Assembly (NCBI RefSeq): GCF_018350175.1
Contig: NC_058378.1
Location: 74,524,001-74,588,000, forward strand
Direction: 5' to 3'
DNA from: Felis catus
Lineage: Eukaryota
DNA: 64,000 nucleotides
The translations under genes were made by a program, and so were the position numbers. This document shows positions 10,742 to 64,000 of this stretch, in pieces. The notes under the pieces were generated by a model. The model did not search any database. It was not told the DNA's origin and was given only the letters and a program-made list of their open reading frames with translations. Position 1 is the stretch's first letter, and each line of letters begins with the position of its first letter.

Positions 10742-10922
10742 TTTTTTATTTATTTATTTATTTACTTACTTACTTACTTACTTATTTTTAAGTTTATTTA
10801 CTTTGAGAGACAGAGAGAAAGCAGGAGAGGGGCAGAGAGAGATGGAGAGAGAACCCCAAGATTATGACCTGAGCCAAGATCAAGAGTCAGACGCTTGACC
10901 ATCTGAGTCACCTAGGTGCCCC
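10742..10922 (-). mobile_element. Older CanSINE with internal deletion
   Basis: Tail, GA-rich tract and head are present, but GAGAACCCCAAG joins directly to ATTATGACCTGAGCC. Degenerate TSD GAATCA(C/T)TT. Confidence 0.88.
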
Positions 10923-16520: not shown

Positions 16521-16754
16521 TTTTTTTTTTTAATTTTTCTGATTTTTTGTTAAGTTTATTTATTTTTGAGAGAGAGAGAGAGAGAGTGAGCACGAGCCAG
16601 GGAGGGGCAGAGAGAGGGAAACACAGAATCCGAAGCAGGCTCCAGGCTCTGAGCTGTCAGCACAGAGCCCGACGTCGGGCTTGAACCCAAGAACATGAGA
16701 TCATGACCGGAGCTGAAGTCGGACGCTCAACCGACTGAACCACCCAGGCGCCCC
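16521..16754 (-). mobile_element. CanSINE (SINEC_Fc2-like)
   Basis: Full body ending CACCCAGGCGCCCC on the plus strand. Degenerate TSD CTTACT..GTTTTT. Confidence 0.95.
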
Positions 16755-18359: not shown

Positions 18360-18550
18360 TAGGTAGGTACCAGAAGAGACAAGTTCTAGCATAGGCTCTA
18401 TTACCAACCTGTTCACACAGAGCAAACAGTTCTCCATGCTGCAGTCTCCTATTTGCAGAATGAGGATAATAATACCTGCCATATCTACTTTACAGGTTTG
18501 TCACGATGAACAGTCATTGAGATAATGGGCATTATTAGCGTAAATAAAGT
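18360..18550 (+). mobile_element. MIR fragment
   Basis: CAGTCTCCTATTTGCAGAATGAGGATAATAATACCTGCC...GAGATAATG matches the MIR core. Confidence 0.6.
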
Positions 18551-19833
18551 ATGAGATGGTATTTCTCATATAACTAACAATTTAGGCAACATAATGACAG
18601 TCTCGTGTCTAATTAGAGACATTTTACTTCACCGAGTCCTATGAAATACTGTTCTCCTTCTTACGTGCTAGGAAAGCAAAGTGCCTAGTGTTCTTGCTTC
18701 CCCAAAGTGATATAAACTGAATCAATGGCTGCGCATCCCTGATTTTTTTTCCCTACATCTAAGATCTACCGAATTTTAATGATGGTTACGCACAGAGTGC
18801 TTTTGGGGTCTGTTGCCCCCGTGTAGCCTGTCCCCACCATGTGCACTATGCTCAAGTGGTGGCCTTTGTGCCTGTCTCATTGTTATTCTCGGGTGCCACA
18901 GTCACTTGAATACTTGAGCAGGGGAAGCAACGGTCCCAACGTCAAGTCACTTTCAGCGCTTGAGATCTGAAAGGCAGCCACTTGGAGTTCATTACACTTT
19001 TCTACTCAACCCTCCTGCCTTAACATTGTATTGCACGAGAATTCTAAATTCACTTTGGCTGCGTTACAAGGCCTGTTTTCTGCCTGGATGCCCAGGTCTC
19101 TCTTTCTTTCTATTGTCTCGGGTTGGTGTCCAGGAATAAAGGATACTTAACATTTAAAAAGGCAGAATTGTTTGCAAGGAAAATACTTCCCGCTAACTGG
19201 CTCTCCGAGAACTTGAAAGACTCAAATGAGGACAGTCACTTCCTTTGGAAGCATATTTATTTCTGTGCATCTTTTCTGGAAAAAAAAAAAAAGTTACCTC
19301 TTTGTGTGTCTTACTCATCATTATGTGTGTTTACAGAGTCCATGAGAAGTTCACAAAAAGAGAATTTCTTAGTGCGAAAGGCCCTTTGTTGAACAGGAGC
19401 TTTAATGCTTCCATACCTGGCCGAATCTCTTTTACGTATGACGACAGAAACCTTTTTCTTAAGCTTCCTGTGACCCACTAGGTCTTTCCACTGGGACAAT
19501 GAGGTAAACTATGTGAACGTATAAATGCCTTTCAACACGCTTTGGCATGTTTTTGTCGATAGAGGTAATCGACTAGGAATTAATTCGCTTCCCTTCTGCG
19601 TCTTGGGCACAGTGCGCAATAGCACTGTGAGCTTGGATAAACCCTGGATGCCTTAGCTTTCCTGTTTTAAGTGCGGCGTATCTAGAAAGTATTCTTTGTG
19701 GTGGTGTGTGATTTAGAGACGTGTGTCTGTCAGCTTCAGAGAAAGAAAAGCCATTTGACCACTTTTGAAAGGGCCGAACAGCGGCGGTGGGCTTAGGGAG
19801 GTGGGAGGGAACAAGGCCCGCCTGCGTTTGTAA

Positions 19834-19870
19834 GTGTGCGTGTGTGTGCGTGTGCATGTGTGTGCGTGCA
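19834..19870. repeat. Mixed (TG/CG)n alternating purine-pyrimidine tract
   Basis: GTGTGCGTGTGTGTGCGTGTGCATGTGTGTGCGTGCA. Confidence 0.85.
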
Positions 19871-19923
19871 TTGTTTTCCACAGGGAAAAACTAATCTCTT
19901 GGCTTAGATCCACCTTAGTATTA

Positions 19924-20198: not shown

Positions 20199-21349
20199 CT
20201 CCAGGAAGTTTGGCCTGGTGGGTCCTTTAGAGAAACTGGGCGTCCTGGTACCTCCCCGGGGAGGCATGCCTCACTAACCAAGCTTGTAAGGATATCACAG
20301 AACCTGTTGGACCTGTGGGGGTGGTGCCTTGCTAATAGCTTTGGCCATTAATTTCCCCCCTCTTTTTTTTTTTTCTAATTTCTTCTTTCTCAAGAGGTTT
20401 CAGGCTCAGCTGAACTGTTCCAATAGCCTGGGGGAGATGTGACTTCACGGAGTTATAAAACACAAAAAGGGAAAATGCTGGGAAAATTGCGTTGCTAAGG
20501 TTCAGTAACTTGTGGTTTCAGAAAATGGAACACTTCTGGACAACGCAGATGGCAGGAAGGGCCATGGTCATCGTTGGAAAACCACCTTCCCCTTTAGGGG
20601 TAGCAGTAGGAACGAGAGAGAACACCTAACCTCTAGGGCACACAGCAGGGGTGCCTTCCTTCCCTTCAGGAAGTCTTTGCTGAATACTGAACGGATGAAG
20701 GAAAGGAGAGGTATTTCCTGTTACCAGAAATGTGACTTGAAGTCAGTGCAGTTGTGGGCAAAGTTGTGTGAGTTAAGGAGGCCATATGACCTGTTAAGGT
20801 AGAAAGAAGGCGGGGGTGGGAGGAAAAGTTTCCCCTTCCTTGCTGTTCAGTCATTGCCCTTCGACAGCCTCTCCTGGGTAGACCAGATCACCAGCAAAAC
20901 AGGGCCGGTTGTGCTGAGTATTTTGCTAGGTACCTTGATGAAACCACGGAGCTGTATACCTTGTATGCAGAGTTTCTCACCAATACCTTCCGTTGTTATC
21001 CAATATTGACCACGTAACCTTGAGAGCGGTGAATTCTCTCTCAGTTGCGCTTTTAGTGAGACCAATGAAAAAATCCAAGGATGCTTCCCAGACCTTGAAT
21101 TTGGAACACTAGGAAGCCCTAACTCGTTAGATGTCGACTTACTACATGGATTCAGATTCAAAGTTTCCATTCTCTTAGAATAGGACTCCCATGACAACCC
21201 CAGCTAACCTTTAGGTTGAGGATTTTATTTACCCTTGTCATGTATGCAGTGCAAACATTTTCTCACCCTGTTTATTTCATCAGTATTATCAGATAATTGC
21301 ACAACAGCATCTTACAGCTCAGAGCTACCTCTGAGATAATTTGAAATAA

Positions 21350-21460
21350 CAATTGCCTTTTGCAGATGAAGAAACTGAGGCCTGGGGAGATGAAGTACCT
21401 TGCCCAAGGTCGCTTGGCTTGTCGAGAGCAAAGTTGAACTGTAACCTGAGCCTGTCTGTC
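21350..21460 (-). mobile_element. MIR core fragment
   Basis: TTTTGCAGATGAAGAAACTGAGGCCTGGGGAGATGAAGTACCTTGCCCAAGGTC. Confidence 0.75.
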
Positions 21461-21859
21461 TGTGTCATATCCTCCAATTATGGCTTGTTGTCCTTAAAAA
21501 CTCACGTCATGTGCCACTTCTCAGTGGCAATGTGAATTCCTTAAACCAATCATTTTTAAACTTTTAAAAAAGAGATCCTTTATTGTGCTTATTATATGGA
21601 TGTAGGTAAGCAATAGAAATGCCTTGAAGTGACAGCGGTAGGGGTAGGAGGACCTGAAGCCCATCATACTAACATCGCCCCATCTTCTGTCCGTACCCTG
21701 GGTGGTCTCTGAGACAAATCCAAGGAACCCAGGTGATCAGAAACTCAGTCTGGAACATCACCACTTGTGCACAAGAAAAACCACCTAACATCTATCTGCA
21801 TCTATCTGTCTGCACATGTCTGCGCATTTCGATCAAATGAGTTTTCAAAGCCTTGGCTT

Positions 21860-22218
21860 CATCACCTTGAAAATCACCAACCGAGGGCTCACGGAACAAT
21901 ATTATCTCCCGGTAACACAAAGCTTGGCACATCCTGGCTGTTTAATAAATTTTGCTGAATGAATAAATTAATGAAGGGTAACGCTTCGATCCCTGGAAAC
22001 TCTTCATTAGCTCTCATCGTCTATTGCTCTTTTCCTGTCCCATGTGGCCAAAATGCATCACATATACCTTGCTAACTCCCTTTTTGTTGTATTTGGCTCC
22101 GTTGTTACTGGTTTCTCCTTCTTGACTGTGAGGTCCTGGAGAGCAGAACTCCGAATTCCCAGTGCTGGGACACAGTGGGCCCAGAGTAAGCTTCAGTAAG
22201 AGCTTATTGTTAAATGAA
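21860..22218 (+). mobile_element. Two L2 3'-end fragments
   Basis: TTGGCACATCCTGGCTGTTTAATAAATTTTGCTGAATGAATAAA, and TTGACTGTGAGGTCCTGGAGAGCAG...CAGTGCTGGGACACAGTGG. Confidence 0.6.
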
Positions 22219-22255
22219 GACTGATGGGAAGTACATCAAACCTGTAGTGCTAAAG

Positions 22256-22477
22256 CAGAGTTTCTCAATCTCAGTATTATTCATGTTTGGGGCTGGAAAA
22301 TTCTTTGTTTGGGGGACCGTCCTGTATATCGTAGGATGTTTAGCAGCACCCCTGGCCAATACCCACTCCAAGCCAGTAGCAGCCTCTCCTAACCCCAAGT
22401 TGTGACAACCAAAAATGTCTCCAGACATTGCCAAATGTCCTCTGGGGGGCAAAATCGCCCTTCACTGAGAACCACAG
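22256..22477 (-). mobile_element. MER20 (hAT-Charlie MITE)
   Basis: GTTGTGACAACCAAAAATGTCTCCAGACATTGCCAAATGTCCTCTGGGGGGCAAAATCGCCC. Degenerate TIRs and 8-bp TSD TGCTAAAG/AGCTAAGG. Confidence 0.92.
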
Positions 22478-23462
22478 AGCTAAGGGATGTCTTGTTTTCT
22501 TTCCTCTGAGCTTCTGTTTCAGATGGACTCAGTCTGAAATGAGGCCGTTCCAAAACGTAAAATGTCTTGGTAAGTAAAAATAGGTAATGGTGTTGCTCAG
22601 ATCTTGGAATTTAAGAATAAGCATCGTCAGCCATTAGTTCATTTCACCCTCTATATATTTTATTTGGAGGGAATTTTAGTGGAGAACATGATGTTTGCTA
22701 GTTTGGGAAGATCATGTTCATTTCATGAAGGAACATAAATGCCAGTATTCTCTTGAGCCATTGGTCTGAAGTTGGCCAAATGCCACAGTTTCAGGATAGA
22801 GATAAAAAATGGCAGCTTCATATATTCTGTCATCATCAAGAAACTAGACTGGCAAATCAGTTGTTTTTCCCATGTTCTCCCGCTTTGGATGGTTTAGCCG
22901 AAGGCCCGTAGGATTTTAAACAGATGCCCAGCCCAAGTCCAAGACTCCAAGATTTAATGGCACCTGTCTACCTCATCCTAGATGTTACACGATACCTAAG
23001 TATCATGGGATACATCTTTATTTGAGACAAATAAAATGCCATTGAGTATTGATTCTCCCTAATGGAACTGGGCCTTTCCACTTCGAATCTAATCAAGAGT
23101 TTAAAGAAACATTTAAGAAAAAGGTCCCATTTCTCCCTCCCAGAAACATATAAGCAAGATGCAGAAGCACAAAATACAGTTCTCTAAAATCGGCATCCTC
23201 AACCTCTCACTCTTCTTATCCTCAGTCTTAAATTATCCTCTCCATATAGGTCATTTCCCAACATCTAAATATTAACAATTTGTAGCCTCGGTATCCCCAA
23301 TTCCNNNNNNNNNNNNNNNNNNNNNNNNNNNNNNNNNNNNNNNNNNNNNNNNNNNNNNNNNNNNNNNNNNNNNNNNNNNNNNNNNNNNNNNNNNNNNNNN
23401 NNNNNNNNNNNNNNNNNNNNNNNNNNNNNNNNNNNNNNNNNNNNNNNNNNNNNNNNNNNNNN

Positions 23463-24421
23463 AATTCAAGTTAGTTAACATACAGTACAGTATTGGTTTC
23501 AGGAACAGAACGCAGTGATTCATCACTTACAAAGAACACCCAATGCTCATCCCAACAAGTGCCCTCCTTGATGCCCATCACCCATTTAGCCCATTCCCCC
23601 ACCTACTTCTCCTCTAGCAACTCCCAGTTTGTTCTGTGTATTTAAGAGTCTCTTATGGTTTGCCTCCCTCTCTGTTTTCCTTATTTTTGCTTCCCTTATG
23701 TTCATTGGTTGTCTTTCATAANNNNNNNNNNNNNNNNNNNNNNNNNNNNNNNNNNNNNNNNNNNNNNNNNNNNNNNNNNNNNNNNNNNNNNNNNNNNNNN
23801 NNNNNNNNNNNNNNNNNNNNNNNNNNNNNNNNNNNNNNNNNNNNNNNNNNNNNNNNNNNNNNNNNNNNNNNNNNNNNNNNNNNNNNNNNNNNNNNNNNNN
23901 NNNNNNNNNNNNNNNNNNNNNNNNNTCATCAGTCAATGGGCATTTGGGCTCTTTCCATAATTTGCCTATTGTTGGTAGCACTGCTATAAACATGGGGGTG
24001 CACATGTCCCTTCAGATCAGCATTTTTGTATCCTTTGGATAAATACCTGCTAGTGTAATTGCTGGGTCACAGGGTAGGTCTAGTTTTAATTTTTTGAGGA
24101 ACCTCCATACTGTTTTCCGGAGTGACTGCACCAGTTTGCATTCCCACCAACACTGCAAAAGTGTTCCTCTTTCTCCACATCCTCGCCAGCATCATTTGTT
24201 TCCTGAGTCGTTCANNNNNNNNNNNNNNNNNNNNNNNNNNNNNNNNNNNNNNNNNNNNNNNNNNNNNNNNNNNNNNNNNNNNNNNNNNNNNNNNNNNNNN
24301 NNNNNNNNNNNNNNNNNNNNNNNNNNNNNNNNNNNNNNNNNNNNNNNNNNNNNNNNNNNCCCATTTCTTAATTTGTCTTTTGGGTGTTGAGTTTAATGAG
24401 TTCTTTATAGATTTTGGATAC
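23463..24421 (-). mobile_element. 5'-truncated carnivore L1 (ORF2 C-terminus and 3' UTR), broken by N gaps at 23305-23462, 23722-23925 and 24215-24359
   Basis: Minus-strand translation CTPMFIAVLPTIGKLWKEPKCP is the L1 ORF2 C-terminal motif. Carnivore L1 3' UTR sequence AATTCAAGTTAGTTAACATACAG...TTAAGAGTCTCTTATGGTTTGCCTCCC. Confidence 0.92.
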
Positions 24422-24567
24422 TTCTTCTTTTCATCAATGCCCAAATAAAATGACTCAACATGTCCCTAATACTGCAGGCTCTTGAAAGTCCAGTATTCCT
24501 ATCCCGATATTTCTATAGGTCTATCCATTCACACATTCATTCATTCAACAAATATTTATTGAGAATA

Positions 24568-25010
24568 CAGATCTTTCTTGATAGGGTTACATCCCAAAAT
24601 GCTTTGAATAAACCTAACCCACCGAACTTCATAGCTTACTTCTTAGCCTACTTTAAACGTGCCCAGAACACTTCCATTAGCCTATAAATGGGCAAAATCA
24701 TCGAACGCCAAGCCTACTTGATAGTAAAATGTTGAAAAATCGCTGTAATTTATTGATCACTGTACTGAACATGAATAGAATGGTTGTCTGTGTGCGGATT
24801 GTTTACCCTCATGGTCGCATTGCTGACTGAGAGTAGTGGGTCACTGCTGCCCCGCATGATGAGACAGTCTCTGCATATTGCTAGCCCATGAAAAGATCAA
24901 AATTCAACGTTCAAACATGGTTTCTACTGAATGCATATCACTTTCACATCATCAGAAAGTCAAAAACTTGTACGTCAAACCATGGTAAGTTGGGGATTGG
25001 GGACTGTCGG
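24568..25010 (+). mobile_element. Tigger5/MER47-type non-autonomous TcMar transposon inserted in an L2 tail
   Basis: CCTAACCCACCGAACTTCATAGCTTA...GGGCAAAATCATC...GGTTTCTACTGAATGCATATCACTTT. TA dinucleotides at 24566-67 and 25011-12. L2 tail CATTCATTCAACAAATATTTATTGAG lies just upstream. Confidence 0.85.
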
Positions 25011-26130
25011 TACCATGTGACTACGACATACTAGATTTCTACTCTGGAGCTCAGGTCCCATCGCATCCCCATCGTACCTCCTGCTGATGAGCTCTCTCCA
25101 TCAACTTTGCCTCCTGTCAGTTCACCGTATCTTCTTTATTCTCCAGAGCAGCGCAACTCAAGGCTGCATGACGTAGTCACAGAAGTTGATGATATTACAG
25201 AAGATGACAATCGCTCACACAAGAAACTGCTTGAAATCACATAGCAGTCATCACTTGTCCTTAAAAGACGCTTTCCTATCCCTGCCACTAATGACAGCTC
25301 ACAGGCCACCTGACCTCCTCAGGATCTGCTTAACAGGCTGCCATGTTGCCGGGCCTGCTCTCTCTCTTCCCAGACCAGAGGAGTCACTTCCTCAAAGCTT
25401 CCTTCCCATTTACTACCGAAGAACATTTCCTGGTTGTGGTTCTTGTTGCTTGTAACTTTATTATCTAATGTCAGTTGGGCCTTTTGTATCAATCACCTCC
25501 TTCCAAATTTTTAATCATCGAAGAAAACCTATCAAAGTATTTTCCTTTGCAAGAGATCCTACATCCTGAGCAAGGCAACACATTAACAGATGCTTTGCTT
25601 TCCCCTTTAATTTTCCCCAGTTCTATTCTTAGGCAGAGTTCTTAAGCAGCACATCATCCTTTGTGATAGACTGAAGGCAGCCGGCAATTTATTTTCCTTT
25701 ATCGAGAGCAAAGGCACTGGGGTAAATTTTTAAAAATCCTATTACATTATTACCTAAGTGCACTCACTTCTCCCTTTAGCTCTGCTCCCAGTGGAAACAA
25801 GTGACTAATCCTTATTAATGCCAATTATTAAAGAGGAATGGCTGTAGCCCTACCTCAGGTCCACTAGATTTTTCCTTTTGAATAACATTGGGATACATTT
25901 TCATGAAGGGGGTAGTTATAATGAATGGGTCACACTGACACTTGTTGATTTACTTATTCTATTTCTGCCCAAGGACCATTGCAAAGTATGGATTAACTCA
26001 GATTTGGAAATGTAAATTCTATCAGAAAAAAAAAATAGCTCATGCTATTGAATTGAACATTTGAGCCATCCTCAGAAAATTCAAACTATGAAAAGACAAG
26101 ACTATATTTTCCTCTAGGAAAATTCTGAAC

Positions 26131-26500
26131 TTCTGCACTGACAGCACAGAGCCTGCTTGGGATTCTTTCGCTTCTTCTCTGTCCTTCCCCAACTCGTACT
26201 CTCTCTCTCCCTCTCAAAATAAATAAATTCTTTAAATATTCAAATTTTTAAAAAGAAAGCACTTACCTCCCCCCCCCCCCACCATGTATCAATACGGGGA
26301 TGATATGATAATACTAATACTCACTATGGCTGATCAAGAGTCTGCCACATGCCGGACTTTTTTCCTTGGTGTTTTTAGATATTTTTTTATATTTGTGTCT
26401 TGGAGCAACCCGCCACGATGGGCATTTTCTCCATTTGCAAACAAAGTTAACCACCTTACTGGAGACCCACCATCAAAGTGGGTGGACAGCAATGCAGGCT
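26131..26500 (+). repeat. Local direct duplicate of ~28060-28423 (3' half of a CanSINE plus flank)
   Basis: Colinear match, e.g. GATAATACTAATACTCACT(A/G)TGGCTGATCAAGAGTCTG and GGCATTTTCTCCATTTGCAAA occur in both copies. Confidence 0.92.
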
Positions 26501-26560
26501 GATTCCTTTTTGGGTATAAAATGGAAGGGTGTCAGAGGAGGTGAGCTATTAATGGGTATT

Positions 26561-26772
26561 ATTTTAAGTTTACTTATTTATGTATTTTTAGAGAGAGACA
26601 GAGAGAGTGAGTAGGGAGAGGGGCGGAGAGAGAGAGGGAGAGAGAGTCCCAAGCAGGCTCCACGCCGTCAGCGCAGAGCCCAACATGGGGCTGGAACCCA
26701 CGAACCATGAGATCGTAACCTGAGCCGCAACCAAGAGTCAGATGCTTAACCAACTGAGCCACCCAGCCACCC
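26561..26772 (-). mobile_element. Older CanSINE
   Basis: Full body. TSD CTATTA(A/C)TGGGTATT at 26546-26560 and 26773-26787. Confidence 0.94.
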
Positions 26773-27094
26773 CTATTACTGGGTATTTTCTATCTAACAT
26801 TTAGATGAGCATGCTTTCCAGTGTGAGGAGCTAGTAGAAAACTCCCCTGTGGTACGTGTGAGTGAGGGTGTGAGTACACAGCTGCTTCTGTGTGTGTAAA
26901 AAATGAATACGTGAATAAACCGAATGGTGATGAAACAGATCCTGAAGTTGGCAACTATATAACCTGGACTACTGCAAATAAAATAGGAACAAACATCATA
27001 AGGGTATATATTTTTTAATTTAGACACAAATATTGGTCTGATCTTTCCTGAAGTGGAATTAACTTTGTTACTGATTCTTTTCATGGATGGACAA

Positions 27095-27310
27095 CATTTA
27101 TTGAGCACTTACAATGCCCCAGATACTCAGCCTAACCCTTAGCACTGCTTTTATCTTCACAGCAATCCCATGAAGCAGTTGTTCGTGTTCCCATTTTACT
27201 CATGAGGAAACTGAGGCCCGGGAAAGAGAAGTCACTTGTCCTCAGTCCTATCCGTGAAAGGACGGAACCAGGAATCAAGCCTGGCTAACTTCACAGCTGT
27301 GTGCTTTACT
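27095..27310 (-). mobile_element. MIR
   Basis: CATTTATTGAGCACTTAC...CCCATTTTACTCATGAGGAAACTGAGGCCC...TCACTTGTCC. Confidence 0.8.
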
Positions 27311-27825
27311 GCATCACATTGACTCTTTTGAAACGAGCTCGATTACTCCTCATTTTGTTCTGATTTTCATACCTCATTTCAAAACTCACACAGTGTTTAG
27401 TCTTTACTATGTTAAGGTATATGGTGGCCTTTAGCTTAAGCTTCTGATCTGATCCTGACGATCTTAGTAAATACAGTGACTCTTGCCTGGTCCCATCACA
27501 GGCAAAAGCAGAAATGATGGCTTCCACAGAAGTCACGTGCTCCACAATTTTGTTAAAGTTTTTCTATCCTTAAAAGTCCGGGTACATTTAGAACCCTCAT
27601 TTACGTCGTGAAATAGCTCTTTGTTCTTAATATAATTTTAAAATTGGCACTTGTAAATCCTGGTATAATTCTTTGCACATGCTAAGTGTTCGATGAAGTT
27701 TTGTTGACATAAGTAAGCATATTACATTTTTTTGTAGAATAAAATATGCCCCAAGAGTACTTAAAACCTGTGAAGTTTGGAAATAATTTCAGTTCTCAAA
27801 ATAGCCAGCCAAATTTGTATGATTT

Positions 27826-27859
<34 letters not shown>

Positions 27860-27964
27860 AAAATGAGTTGCCAAGTATTTTCTTATGATCTGGCCTTAAT
27901 GTTTTTTTTTTTTCTTTATCACCTTCAGATGACATACATAATTTGTTTAGAAAGTACTTATCTT

Positions 27965-28179
27965 GGGAAACCTGGGTGGCTCAGTCAGTTAAGCATCCGA
28001 CTCTTGATCTCGGCTCAGGTCAGGATCTCATGGTTCATAGGATCAAGCCCCACGTCAGGTTCTGCACAGACAGCACAGAGCCTGCTTGGGATTCTTTCTC
28101 TCCTTCTCTCTCTGTCCCTCCTCCACTCGCACTCTCTCTCCCCTTCTCAAAATAAATAAATTTAAAAAATTTTAAAAAC
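27965..28179 (+). mobile_element. Older CanSINE (source of the 26.1-kb duplicate)
   Basis: Complete head and tail. TSD GAAAGTACTTA at 27950-27960 and 28180-28190. Confidence 0.93.
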
Positions 28180-28956
28180 GAAAGTACTTACCCCCTGCCC
28201 CCCACCGTGTATCAATGCAGGGATGATACGATAATACTAATACTCACTGTGGCTGATCAAGAGTCTGACACATGCCAGGCTTTTTTCCTTGGTGCTTTTA
28301 GGATTTTTTATATTTGAGCCTTGTAGCGATCCACCGCGATAGGCATTTTCTCCATTTGCAAATGAAGTTACCTGCCTTCCTGGAGACCCACCACCGAAGT
28401 GGAAGAACTATAATCCGAGCCTGTGTTGGCCTATTTCCAGTGCCCCTCTCTGCTCTTTTCTATGAAGACAATAATCCCTGCTCTTTGTGCAAATTTATGC
28501 TATGGAACTTGCTCACATCACTCTTGTGTACCACAAGGTGAGATATTTAGCCATTTGCATTTTATCTGCTGATAGACATTTGCAGATGACAAAGGGACGG
28601 TAATAAGTGAAACGGCCTACAGTCTTGCTTTGTCTCAAGTGACTTCTCTTCCAGAGAGTCCTCCCCGTCACCCACACAAGCTCAACACAGTTAATTATTT
28701 TAATTAAACACATACCTATATATTTCCCCTGGAGTTATTGCATGGTATGGGACTCCGGATCCTTGGACTAGATGCCTGGAATCCTTCCCCTGGTTCCAGC
28801 TTTACCGCTGAATGACCTCTCGAATGTCACTTAAAGTCTCTGGGCTCAGGCTTCTTCATCTGCTGTCTTAGTGGTTGGCCAGCTCTTGCATACATTGATT
28901 TTTTCAATAACATTAATGTCTTCTAAAAATGATAAGACAAAATACGTTTTACCTAG

Positions 28957-29466
28957 TGTAGTGGGCTAGACAGTGGTCCCCCCCAAAAGATAAATTCCCC
29001 CCCAAAAGATAAAAAAAATCCTCACCCCTGGAACCTGTGAGTGTACCTTATATGGCTAAAGAGTGGCTATTATCTTGTATGGAAAAAAAAAATATGATGA
29101 AGTTAAGAATCTTAAGAAGAGGAAGGTACCCTGTATTGTCAGGGTGGACCTTAAATACACTCAACGTATCCTTATAAGAGAGAGGCAGAGGAAGTTTTGA
29201 GACAGAAAAGGAGGCGGCCATGTNNNNNNNNNNNNNNNNNNNNNNNNNNNNNNNNNNNNNNNNNNNNNNNNNNNNNNNNNNNNNNNNNNNNNNNNNNNNN
29301 NNNNNNNNNNNNNNNNNNNNNNNNNNNNNNNNNNNNNNNNNNNNNNNNNNNNNNNNNNNNNNNNNNNNNNNNNNNNNNNNNNNNNNNNAATACACTTATT
29401 TTTTATTTTGTTTTAAGCCACCCAGTTTGTAGTAATTTGTTACAACGGCCACAGTAAACTAATATA
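28957..29466 (+). mobile_element. MaLR solo LTR (MLT1C/D-like), containing N gap 29224-29388
   Basis: TGTAGTGGGCT...CCCCAAAAGATA...CCTGGAACCTGTGA...TTTTAAGCCACCCAGTTTGTAGTAATTTGTTACA...AACTAATATA. 5-bp TSD CCTAG/CCTGG. Confidence 0.9.
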
Positions 29467-30094
29467 CCTGGTTATGCCACAAAATGCTTCTCCTGGATTT
29501 TTCTGGAATACTTGTAGGGGAACACTTATAGAGGAAAACGCACAAGACCTGAATATTAATTAGGGCTTCTCAACTCAATATGCACCCTAATGTAGCACTC
29601 AGAGACTGTGATAGGAAATGTGTTTAATCTCTTCTTTTAGAGGAGGTCTGAGCTTTCACTTGAGTTGGCTATACTGAGAATAAGCTTATGTGTTGGGGGA
29701 AACCAGTTCTTGCTGGAAAGTATAGGGCAAAGAGGAGTGAAAAGAATATTCCCAACACCCTTTTCAAGAATTGTAAAAGACTGTCTTAATTGCCAAATCC
29801 AAATTGGAAATGAAAACATGTTATGACAGGAAATCTGTATAGGTAGGATCGGCAAGGTGGATAGATACAGGCTACATCCGACTCAGGCCCTGGAGTGTCA
29901 GAAGAAATTCCTGCAGCATTGGCCCATGGTTATGAGGATTGAGAACTACAAATAGAACGGGAATTATTCATGGATAGCAAGGTGTTGACTTTTAGAGAAG
30001 GATCTTAAAAGTCTTATAATCCAACCCTTGAAATGTTGGTTGAATTTCCTTACCTCATAGCCACATTATCACCTGACTTCTACAAACCTCAAAT

Positions 30095-30345
30095 ATCATT
30101 CATTCGTTCATTCATCCATTCAATATTCGAGTGTCTCCTACCGAGGCCACAATAATGGATCAGACTAGAAATGAACAGTCTTCTGTAATAAGATGTAATA
30201 GGAGAAAGAGAACATCATAGTAGAGAAAGACACAATGGGCTGAAACAGCAAAGCTGAGATGACCACCTCTGCCTGGAGGACTCAGGGCCAGCATCGTAAG
30301 AAGTGATATTTGAGCTGAAGCTTAGCAGTGAATAGCACTTGCCCC
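30095..30345 (-). mobile_element. L2 fragment
   Basis: CATTCATTCGTTCATTCATCCATTCAATATTCGAGTGTCTCCTAC...GTGATATTTGAGCTGAAGCTT. Confidence 0.55.
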
Positions 30346-30899
30346 CGGAGGCAGTTCATTTCCTCTTTGAAAAGTCCTTCCTTACATTGAACCAAAATGT
30401 GTGCTTCATTAATTTTTACCTCAACTCTGAATGGTCATTATAAGCCAATGACTCTAGGGACTTTGATCTCAATGGGTGGAAAGGTTACTAGGAATGTATA
30501 AACTCTGTTTTCAGTATGGCTTTGCTTTATGGAGGGTCTTTTGAAAGGAAAGTACCGAATATTCTCATTTCTTGGACAATAAATTCTTGAATAAGAATTT
30601 TTAGGGATTGTCAGAGGAAACTGCTTTGATAGTTAATATTACAGCAAGTATGAATTCTTAAGGAAATGGCCCAACTTCCTGCACCACACTTCTGAGTAGA
30701 TCTTCCCCATATGTGCTAGGAAGGTATAGAGATAATAATGTAAGAACAGTGTAAGGTGTGTGACATGTAAAAATACAACTGCTTGAGCCAGAAGCCTGGG
30801 AGACAGCAGAGATGCCTCTCCTAGGTCATCACTTCCTGCTGGTTCTAGCTTTGGCAGGACTCCGTCCATTCCTCCCTGGCCCTGTGGCCTCCACATCTC

Positions 30900-31335
30900 T
30901 CCCCTGAATGACTGCGTCGGCCTCCTGCCTGTCTCCAATCTTCATTCACACCTTTCTCCTGGCCATTCTCCATCACTCCTGGTGATGCTCAAAAATGAGA
31001 ATTTGATCATGTCTTCCCAGCCTAAAGCTCTTCAGTGTCTTTCTATGATATGAGAGGCAAATCCAAACTCTTCTGTGTGGTTTATAAAGTCAGTGGGTGC
31101 TGGACCCACTGGCCTGTTCAGTGACTTGCAGACCACGGTCATCTTTGCTCCCTCGTTGGCCATGACACTTGACTTCTCTTAGCTCCTTGAAAACACTAGG
31201 CTGTACCTCATACACAGGCCTTTGCACAGACTTTTCCCCTAGCTGGAAACATCCTCATGCTTCTCCCTTTCTACATCTGCCAGTGCCCCTGCCTCCAGAA
31301 AGCTCTCAGCCTCTGTCTGTCTTTGTCTCTCTGTC

Positions 31336-31373
<38 letters not shown>

Positions 31374-31692
31374 ACACACACACACCTCTTTAGCCCACCT
31401 TGCTCCTGCTTCTCCTTCATGTTTTGGTTCAAATGGCTCATCTAGCAGGTAGTCAGCTCCCCATAACTGTCTTGGCTTCCCCCCACTGCAAGCTTCCCCA
31501 GAGCCCTTACATTTCTCCTTCTACTCAATACTCTTCACTCTTTAATTCCTTGGTTAATGCTTGTATTCCCAGCTAGACTGGGAACCCCATAAGAGCAGAG
31601 ACTACAACCCTCTGGTTTAGTTTTGTATCTCCAGTATTGAGGACAGTATCTGACACATATTGGGCCTTAGGTATATATTTGTTGAATCAAGA
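30900..31692 (+). mobile_element. L2 3' region with internal (CT)/(TCTG)/(CA) microsatellite at ~31310-31384
   Basis: AAATCCAAACTC...CAGGCCTTTGCACA...CTAGACTGG...TATATTTGTTGAAT, typical of the L2 3' end. Confidence 0.75.
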
Positions 31693-32329
31693 AAAAAGGG
31701 ATTTGAATAATTGGCATGAACTTAGGAATTGTTGGGGGGGGGAACAACTTAGGCAAACTCAGAGGGGGATTATGGTATTCCCTAAGAGAAACAGAAAAGT
31801 AGGATAATTTCTTCCTCTGTCAAGGAATTGGCTCTGAGAAAACCAGGCTGTGGGACGTTGGAGAAGTCGGCTCAGGGCACTGCAGTGAAATGCTCTGGAA
31901 GCCAGGAAGGGCTGCTGCACTAAAGGGAGCTGTTATTACTGTTTTTTTGTGCGGAGTAGATTTCTTGTTCTCCTCCCTTTGTATGCAGGCAAAGAGTGGT
32001 CTCTAGGGTGGACCACCAAACAGTAAAGCTGGGGCTGGAGAGACAGCCTTTCATCCAAATTTAGCTTCTGAATCTCTGAAGGGTCCTGGTTTCCTAAATC
32101 CCCCAACTTGGCCTTCAGGACCCTCCACAATCTGGGAGCCCTCTTCTCATCTGGTCTTTTCTTTCCCTTTGCATTGCTTTCCATTAAACACCCTTTGCTT
32201 CAGTGACTCAGAAATCAATACATGAAAATCCAACAGGCACTCTTTTTCTTTTCTTTTTTTTAATAAGACCTTGTGTTAACAGCTTTAGGAAACCCTAAGA
32301 AGGACCACTTAACAGGTACTACCATGGGC

Positions 32330-32510
32330 ATGGAAACTGATCGTCTGGATTCAGGCCCCTGCTTTGGGGTTTTCTAATTCTCTGATCAGAGCAGGTCACC
32401 TAATGTCTTTGAACCTACTTTATGTGTTTACCCGTGGAATTGTTGAAAGATGGGATGAGATAATACACGTAAAGTGCTCAGCTGGGCCCTGGATCGTAGT
32501 AAGAGCTCCA
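32330..32510 (+). mobile_element. MIR fragment
   Basis: TCTGGATTCAGGCCCCTGCT...GATGAGATAATACACGTAAAGTGCTCAGC. Confidence 0.55.
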
Positions 32511-56097: not shown

Positions 56098-56651
56098 AAA
56101 TGTTAACTATTGTTAGCTAACATGATCATTAGTATTCTCAGCATTATTGGTTTCTGATGAGTTTAGTTAGCGTGACATAGTCTAGAAGAGAATAATCATT
56201 TCTGGTTTATTGTTCTAGAGAGTACGCAGTTTCTAGGACAACCAGGCTGAGGACCAGACTTGGTCTGAGTTTCTGTTGCAGAGTCATCCTCGGAAATCTG
56301 CCTAAGCATGTCTGTGACTCTTCTTTACCTCAGGTTTTTACAAAACAATTCGTAATCAAGATGGCTAAAATAAAGTTGAATAAGATTAGAAATTATGCGT
56401 AAAGTAAAATAATTATATAATTATACTGAATAATAACAGTAATGAAATACAGATTTTAGTTGGAGAATAAATCTAGTTCTGAGCTTCCTGATAGCCACGG
56501 TGAAAAGGAAAATCCAGCAAGATACATACCTTTAATTGGTAAAAGTAGTTTATCACTTCTTGAGAAGGGATAAACTTTCTGGTACTGAGTCTTAGAGTTT
56601 ATTATGTACATCCTCATCAAATAACAATAGGGGAATGAATCTCATCAAAAA

Positions 56652-56890
56652 GTAATTTTTTGTTTTTTGGGTTTTTAAAAATTTTTTTTCTTAATCTTTA
56701 TTTATTTTTGAGAGAGAGACGGAGTGTGAGCAGGGGAGGAGCAGAGAGAGAGGGAGACACAGATTCTGAACCAGCCTCCAGGCTCTGAGCTGCCAGCACA
56801 GAGCCCTACATGGGGCTCGAACTCACAAACCGTGAGATCATGACCTGAGCCGAAATCGGACGCTCAACCAACTGAGCCACCTAGGCGCCC
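56652..56890 (-). mobile_element. CanSINE (SINEC_Fc2-like)
   Basis: TSD CTCATCAAAAA at 56641-56651 and 56891-56901. Confidence 0.95.
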
Positions 56891-57367
56891 CTCATCAAAA
56901 ACCAGTTTTATGAAAGATCCAGACATGTTGTTCATATTGATGCTTCTAATTCCAACTGATGATAGAAAGGTAGACACAGCGTTGAGTTTCAGGACGGTTT
57001 AGTGGAGGTTGTGTCTACACTGGAGTCTGGTACAATGATTTGCCATCACCTTAGAGCATAAGAGACTGAGAAGAACATGACTGAGGTATCTCCATCAAGC
57101 ATCTCGAGTTTCAGTCATGCCTTTGATGGGCAATACAGAGTATCCATTCAACAATGAGCTGGCTGGTTAAGAGTTGGTTGCAGAGAGTTCTAGTCTTGTG
57201 AATGCCAAGTGGGGATTGGCTCACAAGACTGATTTTGTTATGCTTATTAAGAAGCCCAACACGCATTTTTTTTCTCAACAGAGGACAATTTTAATTATAT
57301 TTGTAGTGAATATCTGAGAGAGTATTTCAATACCTCATGTAGCTATGAACACATTAGAATGAATTTC

Positions 57368-57498
57368 TCTACAGTTTTTCTATATAGCTTTAAATAATTT
57401 CTCCTACTTAACAAAGCATGTGTATATATATTTAATAATAAATCTGTTTATATTTATATCTATAGCTCTATATATCCATCTTCATATATAGGTATATA

Positions 57499-57539
<41 letters not shown>

Positions 57540-58524
57540 CTGTGTGTATGTATTTTGATTCCATATAAGATTCTTTGAATTTCCTTGCTCAAGTTTGAAA
57601 ACTACCGACTCATTATTAATTATTATGATTTCTGCCCAAAGTTTTATCCTCTAAGTTTGAGGCATTTAATTCAACCATATTTTAATTGTTGTCAGAACAA
57701 TTTGTTATTATGCTAAATTTAAAGTATTTATTTATTATGCTAAAATAGACATTCTCATCCACAATTCTCTATGTTCCTCTTGACAGGCCTCCAGATAAAT
57801 GCAGAGAAGTGGAATGGCTGATTCAAAGGATGGAAAGTTTTAGAACTTTTGGTACAGATTTTCCAGAAGAACTAAGTGCCAATCGCTCCCTCCAGCAGTG
57901 GGCTTGCCTGACTTTGCGACTTATGCCTAGTAACAGTCAGGCTGATTTCCATTTTCTGGGCACCGGTGCTCTGCCCACAGTTTATAGTCGTGTCTCCTAT
58001 AGTCCCACCAACAACCTTGCAAGGTTGGCCTTCTTTCCCCACGCAAACAAGAGCGAAGCTCAAAGAGACCCAGTTGGGGGGCGCCTGGGTGGCGCAGTCG
58101 GTTAAGCGTCCGACGTCAGCCAGGTCACGATCTCGCGGTCCGTGGGTTCAAGCCCCATGTCAGGCTCTGGGCTGATGGCTCGGAGCCTGGAGCCTGTTTC
58201 CGATTCTGTGTCTCCCTCTCTCTCTGCCCCTCCCCCGTTCATGCTCTGTCTCCCTCTGTCCCAAAAATAAATAAACGTTGAAAAAAAAAATTAAAAAAAA
58301 AAAAAAAAGAGACCCAGTTGGGCAGAGTTACAAAGCAAGGAACAAGGCGTGCTGGAATTGGAAGTCACTTCAGAGTCTATCTGGCCTGTCTGCGTCCCAC
58401 ACTCAAACTACAGGTGGCTCCTTACTCAGAGAGGGAATAACCTGTTCTCTCATTCTGTTCCCATCCTATCTCGGGTGGGTTCTATTTCCAGAGTGTACTT
58501 GAGCCTCACAGGGCTTCCCTGTCC
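57368..58524 (+). repeat. Left arm of inverted duplication (near-identical core 57790-58358; contains (TG)n at ~57503-57537)
   Basis: Reverse-complement match to 61650-62781. Core is 323/325 identical after removing the SINE and one TSD copy. Confidence 0.93.
58078..58305 (+). mobile_element. Young feline CanSINE (SINEC_Fc1-like) inside the inverted-repeat core
   Basis: Perfect 16-bp TSD AAAGAGACCCAGTTGG at 58062-58077 and 58306-58321. The empty site is visible in the right arm (CCAACTGGGTCTCTTT, ~61926-61941). Confidence 0.98.
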
Positions 58525-60067
58525 TGCTCCATTCTGTTTAGAATGAGCTTCTGAATCTACGTATTATGAGGTCCTCCTGGCTTTGATTGACAGGCAATAT
58601 CTTTTAAAGTGAAAAGTATTATGTTTGGGTCTTCCTTTAGATGGTGAATATAAGATCAGGGCTCCTCCGTCCTGTCTGGGCCGCAAGCCAGCACAGATCT
58701 TGAGTTAGCTTTGCGTCCTGCTTCGAGGCCCCAGCCACAGAAAGGGCAGGAGAGGATGGGGGAAGTGGCAGCAATTATATTAATTAAAATAAAATACTAA
58801 CTTTCTTTTGGTCTCTTATTCAGCAATAATTCACTTAGCGGAATTAGTTCTTTTTTACTTAGAGCAATGGGCCTGACTCATGGGTGTCTCTGCAAGCCAG
58901 ATTTCATGGTCTGTGTCAGAAATCTCTCTCTAAATTCTTATAAGTTGTGTTTCCTTCTATACAATGCATTTTTGAATGCCCACGGGGCTTATCCATCAAA
59001 CTCCCTCGGCTGGCTGACGTTTCTTTCTCTTCCCACCCCCAAGTTTGGAGAACACAGATCACTTTAAATGCTGGATTAAGTCCAACCCGTAAGATCCAAA
59101 GCACAGAACTCAGACTAACACGACCTATCTTGGCAGAGGCGCATCATGGCCGCCGGTCCCACCGTCTTGCTGGCTGGCTCCAGAGTCACCCCAGGGCCCC
59201 CTTCTCCTGCCTGACTCTGATCTTTACCATTTTGGCCCCTTGAGGAACCAGCCCCACCGCCACGGATGCCCCTCTATTTCAGCTTCCAGAGTTCAGCTTG
59301 GGGTAACTCCCCTTCCTCTGAATTCATCACTAACTCAGACTTTCCTCCTCCCCTGACGTCCCTGTTAACTGCCTTTTAACCCCCGGGCCAGAGAGAAGCT
59401 TACCTGTCCATCCAACAGTGGTTCATCCCAGCCCCAACTCTCCTGTTCCATGCCAATACTGATAAAGACAGAGGCTTCTGAAGAGTGACATTCTGGGATC
59501 GATGAGCCCCTTCAGAGAGAGAATGTCTCCCACACATGAGAATTCTCGGGCTAATGCTATCACTCCCATGCCCCCTGTGCTCATGGCACTTAAATTTTAT
59601 ACCTCAGACGTTCTAGCAAGTTCCTAAAAGGAATCACAAGTCAGGCAAATGTCAACCTTCAAATTAATTTAAAAATCTTCTTTTCCCTCACACCATACAC
59701 AAAAACAAACTCCAAATGGGTGAGAGATTTACATGTAAAACATGAAACCTTACATGGACTGGGGTAAAGCACAGGTGACTTTCATTAGATAACTTGGATG
59801 CGGGAAAGGTTTTCCAACAATGACTCCAAATCCAGATGTAACAAAGAAAACAGTGAGTTAAAACTTTGTTTTGTGTGTGAAAAGGATCATAAGTCAAAAC
59901 ACAAATGTTAAACTGGAATAGCATACTGTAGCTGCCACATAGATCACAGACAAAGGTTTACTACCTCTTATATATAAAGAACTCTTAAGAATTATGGGGA
60001 AAAAAGAGTAAACTTGACAGGAAAATGGGCAAAAGAGATAAACAGAAAATTTACAAAAATTAAATAA

Positions 60068-60093
60068 ATGTATATATATATATATATATACAA

Positions 60094-60144
<51 letters not shown>

Positions 60145-60154
60145 AATGTATATA
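60068..60154. repeat. Compound (TA)n microsatellite with repeated AAATGTATATA units
   Basis: Directly visible. Confidence 0.95.
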
Positions 60155-60509
60155 CTATTGACCTTTGAATAATGTGGGGATTAGGGGCACCAAACCCCTG
60201 CAGAGTATAAAACTCATGTATAACTTTTCACTCCCCCCAAACTTAACTACAAATAGCCTATTATTGATGGAAAGCCTTATCGATGACATAAACAGTCCAT
60301 TAACACATATTTTGTGTGTTACATGTACTCTGTACTATAGTCCTATAATAAAGTAAGCTACAGAAAAAAGGCGCTATTAATGTTATAAGGAAGATAAAAT
60401 ACATTTATAGTGATGCACACATGGGGAAAAATCCATGTATACATGGGAGAAAAATCCACGTCTAAGTGGACCCCCACAGTTCACACCCGTGTTCTTCAAG
60501 GGCCATCTG
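60155..60509. mobile_element. Tigger2-family non-autonomous transposon inserted in the L1
   Basis: Degenerate TIRs CTATTGACCTTTGAATAATGTGGG and CCCGTGTTCTTCAAGGGCCATCTG. Internal ACTTAACTAC-AATAGCCTA and AATAAAGTAAGCTA. Preceded by TA. Confidence 0.85.
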
Positions 60510-61649
60510 TGCAGAAATGACTCTTACACATCTAAGACACATTGAACTTCACTTACGCTAAGAAAAATGCAAATTAGAACTGCACAGAGATGCAACTTCT
60601 CCTGAATAGGATAGGCAAAATGTCAAAACTTTGATAACATCTTCCTGATGAGGCTTTGAGGAAATGGATACTCACACACTGCTAGAGGGTGACATCTAAT
60701 TATGTACACACTTGCCAACTGGCCTAGAAATCCAACTTCTAGAAACTTACCCTGAAGATATACCCCCAGGAATACCAAACAAATTATGCAGAAAACTATT
60801 CCTTGAAGTCGCAATTTATAACAGCAAATTATTAGAAGGCGTCTAAATGCCAATACTTAGGAGAATGGCTGAGAAAACAATGATACAGACTCACAGGGAA
60901 GTAATTTGCAGATGTTTAAAAAAGAGGAATGAAGATTTATATGAACTGATAGATAATAACTTTCAGGATATGTTGTTAAGTGAGGAAGAAAGCAAGGTGG
61001 AGAAGAATATATATTTATATGGAAATATATATAATATATATGGAATGTGCTAGATGTGCATAAGACAGAAAGAAAAGTAAGATTTCTCCCCAAAAGAAAT
61101 ACATAAAGAAGCATAAGCCAGAAATGAGTCAAATGGGCTATTTACTAGAGGTGGATGGGATCACAGTTGAAGGGATGAAGAGAAGATCAAATTTTTAGTG
61201 GTGTATAGTGTTGACTTTTGAATCATGTTTATACTCACACATAGAATTAAATCAGAAACAATGGCAATACAAGTGGGAATAAATCGATATAACTGGATAT
61301 GAAATTGATGACGTAATCAAACAGAAGGAAAAAAAAAGTTAAGCTAAACACGTTTGGAGCGTATTCCTGACTGCACACCATTAATGCTGAGGACGTAAAG
61401 GAATCCAACTTGACTCAGTAGATTCGTTGTTCGTAGCGGTGCTGGTAGAGTGTTTCTGAATGTTGCATTGTAGGACTGAGAAAATAAGTAAGCATACTGA
61501 TGTTGCCCAGAACCAGTGTCTCCCCTGTGGATAAAGGGAGATAAAGAATAAGAAAAGAGGAGCATCATATGATTTTGGATTAGACTTGGAGGTATCATGT
61601 GTGTGGGGGAGGGTAGGTCCTGTTCATATACCCCTGTACGAGGTGTGGG

Positions 61650-62781
61650 GGACAGGGTGTTAGTCTCAGCTAACCTTCTGGGGAATGGGATCCAAACCAG
61701 TCAGTGAAGAAAATGGGATGATTATTCCCTCTCGTGAGTCAAAAACAAGTCATGGTTTGCAAAAATTAGACATGAAGAGATACAAAGTCACAGGAAATGA
61801 GACCCTGTCTTCAGCACGTCTCTTGAGGTAGCATCAGCCAAGCGGGAAAAGCATGGGGGTCTAGAGAGACCCAGAGAAAGGACTTGCCATTCCAGCACGC
61901 CTCGTTCCTTGCTTTGTAACTCTGCCCAACTGGGTCTCTTTGAGCTTCGCTCTTGTTTGCGTGGGGAAAGAAGGCCAACCTTGCAAGGTTGTTGGTGGGA
62001 CTATAGGAGACACGACTATAAACTGTGGGCAGAGCACCGGTGCCCAGAAAATGGAAATCAGCCTGACTGTTACTAGGCATAAGTTGCAAAGTCAGGCAAG
62101 CCCACTGCTGGAGGGAGCGATTGGCACTTAGTTCTTCTGGAAAATCTGTACCAAAAGTTCTAAAACTTTCCATCCTTTGAATCAGCCATTCCACTTCTCT
62201 GCATTTATCTGGAAAAAACAGTCAAGATAGACACAGAATTATGGAGGAAGATGTCCATTTATAGCACGATAAGGAAATACTTTAAAAATTGGCAACAATT
62301 AAAATATGGTTAATTTAAATTTCTGAAACCTAGACAATGGGGGCACCTGGCTCAGTGGGTTAAGCATCCTACTTAGGCTCACGTCATGACCTTAAGGTTC
62401 CTGAGTTCCAGCCTCATGTCAGGGTCTGTGCTGACAGCTCAGAGCCTGGAGCCTGCTTCAGATTCTGTGTCTCCCTCTCTCTCTGTTTCTTCCCAGCTCA
62501 CCCTCTGTCTGTCTGTCTCTCTCTCAAAAATAAATAAACACTCAAAAAAAATTTTTTTAAACCTAGACAATGAAATCCAGGCATAGAAATAAAATATATA
62601 AAAGTCAGTTTTATAATGATAGTTTTTAAAGCTTATTTTAGCAGGGGAACCTAGAGTTAAAATCAAAATATATACACATAGCTAAACGGGTAGATATGTA
62701 GATAGATTTATTTTTTGTTTAAAAAAATATACAATTACTTTGGTGATTAGGAAATTAAATTAAAATCATGCAAACTGTAGA
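61650..62781 (-). repeat. Right arm of inverted duplication (near-identical core 61889-62213)
   Basis: Anchors outside the core: CAACAATTAAAATATGGTT (62293-62311 vs 57673-57691), TTATTCCCTCTC (61722-61733 vs 58429-58440), GGACAGGG (61650 vs 58517), AAACTGTAGA (62772 vs 57368). Confidence 0.93.
62340..62558 (+). mobile_element. CanSINE (SINEC_Fc2-like) private to the right arm
   Basis: Perfect 14-bp TSD AAACCTAGACAATG at 62326-62339 and 62559-62572. Confidence 0.96.
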
Positions 62782-63217
62782 CACTATCTCTGTCATTCCT
62801 TCTACATTCATTAGCTGGCATTCTTTGGTGAAGAAAACCTTTGCCTTCTCCCTCTCCCGCTAGCACCCAAAGGTTTTTGTTTTTCTTTTTGTTTTGAATA
62901 TCACTATGGAGTCCTGGATTCTTTGGGCTATGATCCATAACTCTCTGCTGCTCAAATTGTCCTAAATTTGGCAGTGGGAACTCCTTAGCTGACTCCTGTA
63001 TCTTTTCAACAGATCTCCATCCGTCTTTGAGTGCTTCCTTGCCTTCTGACTCAAGAGACTCCAGGCTCATCCCCCTGTACTTCTCTCTCCCCCAGCAGTT
63101 TCTCTGAAGAGCCCCCGTTTCTATTAATGGAGAGCTTGGGAATTAGAAAACAAGATCTGGGCACTCGCAGGGTTCATTGCCCCTGGAGTGTCACTGCTTC
63201 CAGAGTCTTCCAGTGAC
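62782..63217 (-). mobile_element. L1MC4-like 3' UTR segment, opposite orientation to 59686-61597
   Basis: TGCTCAAATTGTCCTAAATTTGGCAGTGGG...TCCAGGCTCATC...AAGATCTGGGCAC matches the reverse complement of the recalled L1MC4 3' end. Confidence 0.8.
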
Positions 63218-63827
63218 TCTCCTAGAGTCACCCAGTCTTCCAGGGTGAGTCTTCCACACCCTCAAGTGTGTTATTATCTGAATCCTCATTTAAAAAGAAG
63301 GATTTTTCACTTCTGCATAAGGTCAAAAATACTAAATGTCAAGATTTACAGCATTTCCCCTTTTTCTCCCCTTCAGACCTCTTTGTTGTGTTAATCAGGA
63401 TGGCGGGGTAGAGAGATGAATTGGAAAATAAGTACAGAGACGAAATGGATTTACACAATGGTACAGTGCCTCTCTCTGGGACCCAGCCATGTGAGAAAAG
63501 CAAGCTGGAGTTTCAGAGAAACAGAGGAGATCCAGCCACAAAGAGAGCAGAAAGGCTTTCAGAAGGCTGATGCCTGCACAGGGTTTTAAGAAGTTTTGCG
63601 GTTTCTTATGTGATAAAATTTTCATTTTCTACCCCTTCAAGAGACTTCAGTGAAGACATTACTTCTCTAGACCTTTGGATTAGACTTGTGTTTCTCTTAA
63701 TGGTGACACCAAGCAGAAATGGTTCTTAAAGCAAGTTCAAGAAGGCCTGGGATTATTTGGATTATAATTATTATTAAGGGAGCATTCCACGTAAGGAGCT
63801 AAATATTACAAATTCCTGTTTTCAGAA

Positions 63828-63985
63828 CAGTGGAATGGAAAAGAAATATGCTCTGGAATTAGAAATGGTTTTGTAATCCACCCCCCCCCTCACCCCCACC
63901 ACCACCTCGTAATTACACAATCTTGGCCAAGGTACTTAATGTTTCTGAATCTCATTCTATCTGGAAAAATTGTAGATGACTTGGA
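63828..63985 (+). mobile_element. MIR fragment
   Basis: CAGTGGAATGGAAAAGAAATATGCTCTGGAATTAGA...CTTGGCCAAGGTACTTAATGTTTCTGAATCTCA. Confidence 0.6.
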
Positions 63986-64000
63986 AATAGTCAAAGAGTC

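Follow-up and report, generated by a model that had tools for sequence, protein, structure and literature searches.

An old inverted duplication in the Felis catus genome with a core likely homogenised by gene conversion between its arms

How can two arms of a duplication that have drifted far apart in their flanks still share a near-identical centre? This question is raised by a locus in a 64,000-nucleotide stretch of the Felis catus genome (NC_058378.1:74,524,001-74,588,000), hereafter called the window, with positions counted from its start. Two arms of approximately 1.1 kb, consisting of old non-coding DNA, are reverse complements of each other and enclose a 3.1-kb spacer (Table 1). With the short interspersed elements (SINEs) excluded, the core of the two arms differs at only 2 of 325 bases (57790-58077 plus 58322-58358 against the reverse complement of 61889-62213). 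The mismatches, 57918/62085 and 58344/61903, each lie in a CpG context, and identity falls sharply at either core edge. These features had been described in an earlier reading of the letters (the original prediction) and were all reproduced here. The explanation in which we have reasonable confidence is an old inverted duplication, likely older than the split of the lineages concerned, with a core that neutral gene conversion within the chromosome likely homogenised in the cat lineage, for the most part probably from left to right and probably in more than one round. What such a near-identical core dates is the latest repair rather than the duplication.

The original prediction regarded the heavily diverged, colinear flanks as remains of the same duplication. 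We compared their local alignment scores with those of 300 shuffles and of same-size real stretches of the window. The proximal outer flanks (score 139.5) and the inner flanks (49.5) were equalled by no shuffle and by none of the 532 and 528 background stretches, respectively, which places their homology beyond chance. The distal outer flanks (79) were not equalled either (0/300 shuffles, 0/536 background stretches), with a background maximum of 76 that makes them borderline. No arm homology was detected outside ~57330/62830 (119/300 shuffles as good) or inward of ~58560/61620 (57/300 shuffles as good). The outer flanks are 78% identical over 336 ungapped columns with 21 gaps, in an aligner that inflates identity. 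In a multiple alignment the arms match each other at 88/125 (70%) and match five further L1-like stretches, chosen by eye within the window, at 37-52%; one of these five was verified as L1 open reading frame 2 (ORF2). For the inner flanks, percent identity alone is 74.5% against 72% for shuffles in the same aligner. Independent L1 insertions as the origin of the arms were rejected, since the flank identity and the common non-L1 inner flank speak against them. The longest exact flank matches are a 19-mer and a 12-mer, which had been taken as private anchors; both are present, but a run of 19 is expected in 10-62% of simulated flanks with 70-80% identity. Close to the outer core edge, no more than some 15 bp from it, the felid left arm alone carries five substitutions and a 2-bp deletion (57775-57789), and a 9-mer of this patch is found again at 58587 in the spacer. 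Post hoc, this cluster of changes could possibly be regarded as a repair scar.

A single stop-free frame spans both cores (57749-58105 on the plus strand, 61811-62221 on the minus strand), and public collections contain parts of the locus that gene callers have reported as proteins. This frame was used as a query against protein collections that include genes called on raw contigs. In total, 22 proteins were retrieved by three index searches, a full HMMER scan, and three cluster look-ups. They carry no species labels; the letters B to I used below are names given to sequence groups. The proteins were back-translated to degenerate DNA and only residue-fixed sites were counted. One of them (P0018; 2742 aa, eight stretches) was left out, the near-duplicate cluster members P0005, P0010, P0020, and P0021 were excluded from the site counts, and P0006, P0008, and P0012 were used only in the divergence and arm-typing comparisons. 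The proxies change frame repeatedly with respect to the window and appear to behave as translations of neutral DNA. In metagenome contigs, an exact 25-mer search gave no match, and none of the 222 pattern matches of a profile scan was confirmed.

Two proxies from independent contigs bear on the reality of the cores. Both start inside the core and were compared at the protein level. P0001 (ENA contig, 624 bp) is equal to the left frame at 91/91 residues, including the SINE junction, and covers the core from 57830. P0002 (ENA contig, 752 bp) links the core to the right inner flank, in which 0/47 determined sites differ. It departs from the left core of the window at 2/151 determined sites and by one base of length, and from the right core at two sites where the window equals its left arm and at one site of the window's own. 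Both cores thus appear to be real by the testimony of these contigs. The alternative, an assembly collapse in which a short-read assembler would have filled one core with the reads of the other, could draw on the seven N gaps in the window and on the departures of P0002 from the right core. We consider it highly improbable, as one contig gives the left core with its SINE junction and the other the right core with its own inner flank, and the arms retain two differences and the SINE of each; a collapse could conceal no more than one or two true differences. No cat-like match was found in Logan, which omits partial gene calls for non-human runs, according to its description (10.1101/2024.07.30.605881). 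This weakly and indirectly supports real cores, since identical cores would break such contigs.

The age of the duplication follows from the distribution of the arm types. The inner flanks are left-type in 6/6 left rows (groups B, C, D, E, and F) and right-type in 4/4 right rows (groups C and I). Distant lineages thus carry both arm types, with flanks that group according to arm, and the duplication must be old, as the original prediction had it. Compared with the window, the ortholog groups diverge by 14-22% in the core and by mostly 19-25% in the corresponding inner flank, distances of the order that separates dog or other laurasiatherian orders from cat. The duplication likely predates the split of several mammalian lineages, a date that we infer from the sequences. 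The sorting of flanks by arm, obtained from alignment scores, is as predicted. The core tree, in which the original prediction expected clustering by species, has internal support of 36-80% and thus a weakly supported topology; the left and right sequences of lineage C are grouped in two of three tree models with 39-40% support. The pre-split divergence between arms is 7/97 in the core against 6/29 in the inner flank (p = 0.07, with cross-arm inner alignments that are unreliable).

Lineage C is the sole lineage with both arms found. Two pairs of its gene calls, each with one left and one right arm, come from contigs that match in length (8435 bp in one pair and 12995 bp in the other). The cores differ at 12/90 and 16/90 co-determined sites; with part of the inner flank included, between 17/112 and 23/114 sites differ, with six gaps. 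In Logan contig files every 31-mer is distinct, as their description states (10.1101/2024.07.30.605881), so arms on one unbroken contig have no 31-mer in common. Simulated arms lacked a common 31-mer in 0.4% of trials at 5% divergence and in 28% at 10%, which would make C arms at most 5% apart unlikely and a distance of 10% or more plausible. The cores of lineage C thus appear to be 13-20% apart and not homogenised. The proposal that arm-to-arm conversion homogenised the core is supported for the cat, whose right core carries left-lineage states, but a centre kept identical across species finds no support in this lineage.

The same observations bear on a mammal-wide conserved inverted repeat, with a core identical in every species and a spacer that flips recurrently. 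Such a repeat would agree with the age of the duplication, with the survival of both arms in at least two lineages, with the grouping of the two C arms (in spite of its low support), and with a near-identical block of 288 bp, longer than the minimum of approximately 200 bp given in a review (PMC3924818). It is nevertheless very unlikely. The gapped divergence between the C cores largely refutes it for that lineage, the contigs of lineage B run through the core unbroken, position 77 (see below) sorts by arm across lineages, and the 4/4 informative lineages have the orientation of the window.

The transfer between arms can be followed at individual sites, numbered here by core position. At position 77, the right core of the window has A, as do 5/5 determined non-felid left rows (four lineages), whereas both right lineages have G. 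The right core of the window also has the B-left state at positions 88 and 150; at the former, both right lineages and P0002 have A. A 2-bp deletion near position 47 is present in both window arms, P0001, P0002, and the left arm of lineage B. It is absent from seven other rows (five left-type or outer-only, two right-type), and P0013 matches it in length with a different sequence. These left-lineage states in the right core support arm-to-arm transfer in the cat lineage, as far as back-translated sites can indicate. If the arms still exchanged in the common ancestor of B and cat, position 77 alone would give the direction. Both mismatches between the window arms had been read as CpG transitions. 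At 57918/62085, G is ancestral and the A of the right arm is recent. At 58344/61903 the CpG context stands, but the A of the left arm is the state of 5/5 determined left-type ortholog rows (four lineages), and this mismatch is therefore not the result of CpG decay in the left arm. We also observed a 2-3 bp deletion at ~58050-58056 (core position ~264) with respect to most ortholog rows, which is found in both window arms, P0001, and P0002.

P0002 has a longer C-run near position 250, as in both right rows and also in the left arm of C. Its states suggest a later tract in the lineage of the window, or else an assembly that merged one or two true differences. The SINE inserted in the left core may give a further indication of more than one round. 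This element, presumably of the young carnivore SINE family and not named in the original prediction, has a target-site duplication of 16-17 bp, is 4-7% from four young copies in the window, and differs from the subfamily majority by three private non-CpG and four CpG changes. Used as a clock, its three private non-CpG changes in 160 sites contrast with none in 2 x 309 core sites (p = 0.009). The felid core has changes in a ratio of 7:1 towards GC, against 7:5 in the left flanks and 1:3 in the right inner flank.

A simpler history would be a single repair event, either a long tract or a template switch, through which the left core replaced the right one ahead of the SINE insertion and after which no exchange took place. 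It would account for the abrupt edges, for the outer-flank windows of 30 columns that range from 70 to 93% identity without clear intermediate strata, for the left state of all the more robust informative sites, and for the cluster of changes, described above, by the outer edge of the left core. We give it a small but appreciable chance, for the core difference seems younger than the SINE (p between 0.009 and 0.21) and at position 88 P0002 retains the old right state in place of the left state of the window, which would necessitate a later event or a parallel mutation.

In gene conversion with repeated rounds, which we favour, one arm would have served as the repair template for a break in the other, at a distance of about 4 kb. 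The tracts would end at indel-rich heterologies, giving the sharp core edges. A tract across the SINE site would have been copied before the SINE inserted, because later copying in either direction would move or erase the element, and later, shorter tracts may have kept the 288-bp outer part level. Two reviews describe interlocus conversion as requiring a minimum of approximately 200 bp of identity, with higher rates at short distance and tracts of 50 to several hundred bp (PMC3924818), and as acting mainly above 80% identity, possibly below it, with insertions and indels ending the pairing (PMC3924818; PMC3924837). As to timing, we rank a late onset, after the arms had drifted, slightly above conversion that has run continuously from the duplication on. 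A late start is favoured by position 88 of P0002, by the outgroup in which the arms are unconverted, and by the absence of intermediate strata, and continuous conversion has the advantage that it need not start at low identity. More tentatively, concerted evolution may have been restarted. The arms would have been apart for tens of millions of years (at ~80-85% identity, as in C) and then re-coupled in the cat by homeologous conversion, with short tracts exchanged since, even after the SINE had cut the block to 288 bp, and with states still varying among cats. If true, such a restart would be a dated natural counter-example to final termination and the locus a newborn substrate for inversion.

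Several points weigh against conversion that is mostly from left to right and repeated. All cross-lineage evidence is back-translated from unlabelled gene calls, with about half of the sites undetermined. With the window as the anchor of the alignments, its branch is shortened, and the ortholog hits were found through their likeness to the core. Both C arms are placed on one contig by equal lengths alone, and the right arm of lineage B was not found among the proxy proteins. The direction is carried by few sites, and under loose criteria the window is in the right-type state at three of seven arm-diagnostic sites (177, 195, and 260), a hint of transfer from right to left that was not robust on inspection at any of them. 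The one extra base in the C-run of P0002 may be a sequencing error, and run length sorts poorly by arm. The SINE clock weakens as well: had one or two of the changes been inherited from the source element, p would be 0.04 or 0.21, and with CpG sites included it lies at 0.02-0.24. Finally, the ratio of 7:1 towards GC in the felid core is not significant against 58:39 in other lineages (p = 0.15).

The original prediction also held that the spacer might flip between species. In 4/4 informative lineages (B, C, E, and F) a left-type outer flank is joined to a left-type inner flank, as in the window; lineage D is tied on the outer flank and the other groups lack one flank. We should note that the scoring omits six core-adjacent codons, where the felid left arm has its own change cluster; with these codons kept, the right outer flank becomes the better match for B, D, and F, and the orientation call depends on their exclusion. 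No recombinant flank junction was seen among the proxy orthologs, and spacer flipping thus seems to find no support in these alignments.

Could the two cores instead be kept alike by selection, as a regulatory, hairpin-forming, or small coding element? One frame is stop-free through both cores, a transcript through the locus could pair the arms, and the ortholog divergence of 15-17% in the core is below the 19-23% of the inner flank. The last difference is expected, since the hits were found by core likeness. The frame switching in the orthologs means that the stop-free frame is not conserved; with no Pfam family at the cut-off for this frame, a coding role was rejected. A structured RNA in the core was likewise discarded, with no Rfam match at threshold across 57300-62900 and a folding that 85/100 shuffles equal. 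The left core has, moreover, tolerated a SINE. Selection on the core is therefore a poor candidate, in our view hardly probable.

The arms consist of common repeat material. Their outer part aligns to window positions 23927-24214 above 100/100 shuffles, and the latter stretch matches L1 ORF2p residues 1130-1185 (E-value of 1.6e-23), which supports a putative origin from L1 ORF2; a direct search with the arm peptide gave no L1 match. The original prediction of decayed L1/MIR DNA is thereby supported in its first half. A MIR profile built from nine window copies picked by eye had no match in the core; in a leave-one-out test it missed two of nine held-out copies and scored a third at -0.9. The inner part may be MIR-derived on the basis of a resemblance seen by eye, unconfirmed by the profile. 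In the L1 part of the core, GC content is 45%, compared with 34-39% for three old stretches of L1-like sequence in the window; a younger L1 piece also reaches 44% in the same part. The SINE in the right outer flank is 16-23% from the other copies compared. The predicted 16-bp palindrome is present in both cores and needs no role. We consider it incidental, as the window holds two other 16-mer palindromes of this sort outside microsatellites and the palindrome is imperfect in ortholog rows B, D, and I.

Table 1. Features of the inverted duplication (window positions).
Feature	Position	Strand	Remarks
Left outer flank	57341..57789	+	AT-rich; TG microsatellite 57499-57537; antisense L1 ORF2 relic near core; left-type in orthologs
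Left core, outer part	57790..58077	+	288 bp; one difference from right, at 57918
First copy of left-core SINE target-site duplication	58062-58077		End of left core outer part
Palindrome, 16 bp, perfect, left core	58012..58027	.	Copy at 61976-61991 in right core
Young carnivore SINE, A-tail, and second target-site duplication copy (58306-58321)	58078..58321	+	Left core only
Left core, inner part	58322..58358	+	37 bp; one difference, at 58344
Left inner flank	58359..58524	+	Diverged, large indels; left-type in P0003, P0004, P0009, P0013, P0015, P0019
Spacer	58525..61649	.	3.1 kb unique DNA; TA microsatellite 60066-60154; L1-like relics by eye; orientation as in orthologs
Right inner flank	61650..61888	-	Right-type in P0002, P0007, P0011, P0014
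Right core	61889..62213	-	325 bp, without SINE; putative conversion recipient
Right outer flank, proximal	62214..62339	-	L1 ORF2 relic; carries the 19-mer anchor
Older carnivore SINE	62340..62572	+	14-bp target-site duplication; right outer flank only
Right outer flank, distal	62573..62816	-	Homology borderline against window background

The locus is probably a further case of the known process of arm-to-arm gene conversion. With interlocus gene conversion of nearby duplicates (Fawcett and Innan, 2011, PMC3924837; Mansai et al., 2011, PMC3924818) it shares old paralogues with a young-looking block, a block size close to the minimum of ~200 bp, a short distance, and indel edges. It differs in that non-coding relic DNA is involved, homogenised in one lineage among those seen, and in that the block is near-identical in spite of being split by a SINE, an insertion of the kind that the review names as ending pairing. 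The FLNA/EMD inverted repeats (HsInv0389; 10.1101/2020.04.20.051185; PMC3961182) are likewise an inverted duplication common to distant mammals with arm-to-arm identity. Their 11.3-kb arms are, however, more than 99% identical, occur in all eutherians studied, and are found in both orientations, whereas the present block measures 0.3 kb, is not identical in lineage C, and was not seen inverted in the proxies. For the mammal-wide recurrent-inversion type, both defining features tested here (identity within species and both orientations) thus appear to be lacking. Primate X-chromosome palindromes with GC-biased conversion (Jackson et al., 2021, PMC8981503) share conversion between arms, to which the GC content in the L1 part of the core, above that of three old L1-like stretches, may be added. 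They are large, gene-bearing, and conserved across species; here the GC bias is not significant and a younger L1 piece has a similar GC content in that part. Small human inversions (Giner-Delgado et al., 10.1101/501981) also have a spacer of a few kb between highly identical inverted blocks, a substrate for recurrent flips; the cat locus is a potential substrate only, known from one orientation.

No new mechanism is thus involved, and the value of the locus would be that of a compact, apparently neutral test case. It combines an old duplication, unconverted outgroups, two SINE time marks, and arm-diagnostic sites, and could address whether conversion can restart at ~80-85% identity and whether ~290 bp is enough to sustain conversion or to flip a 3-kb spacer.

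In the remainder of the window, no genes were identified by eye in 8000-19900, 20500-32499, 32501-56500, and 56500-64000, or from the list of long open reading frames. GC- and CpG-rich stretches are located at ~11500-12100 and ~15200-15700, in which no exon was found by eye. The window also contains a direct duplication (26131-26511 and 28060-28436; 86% identity over 369 columns, 1.9 kb apart), of which the unit consists of the 3' half of a SINE and ~230 bp of downstream flank, with a copy end that has no visible A-tail.

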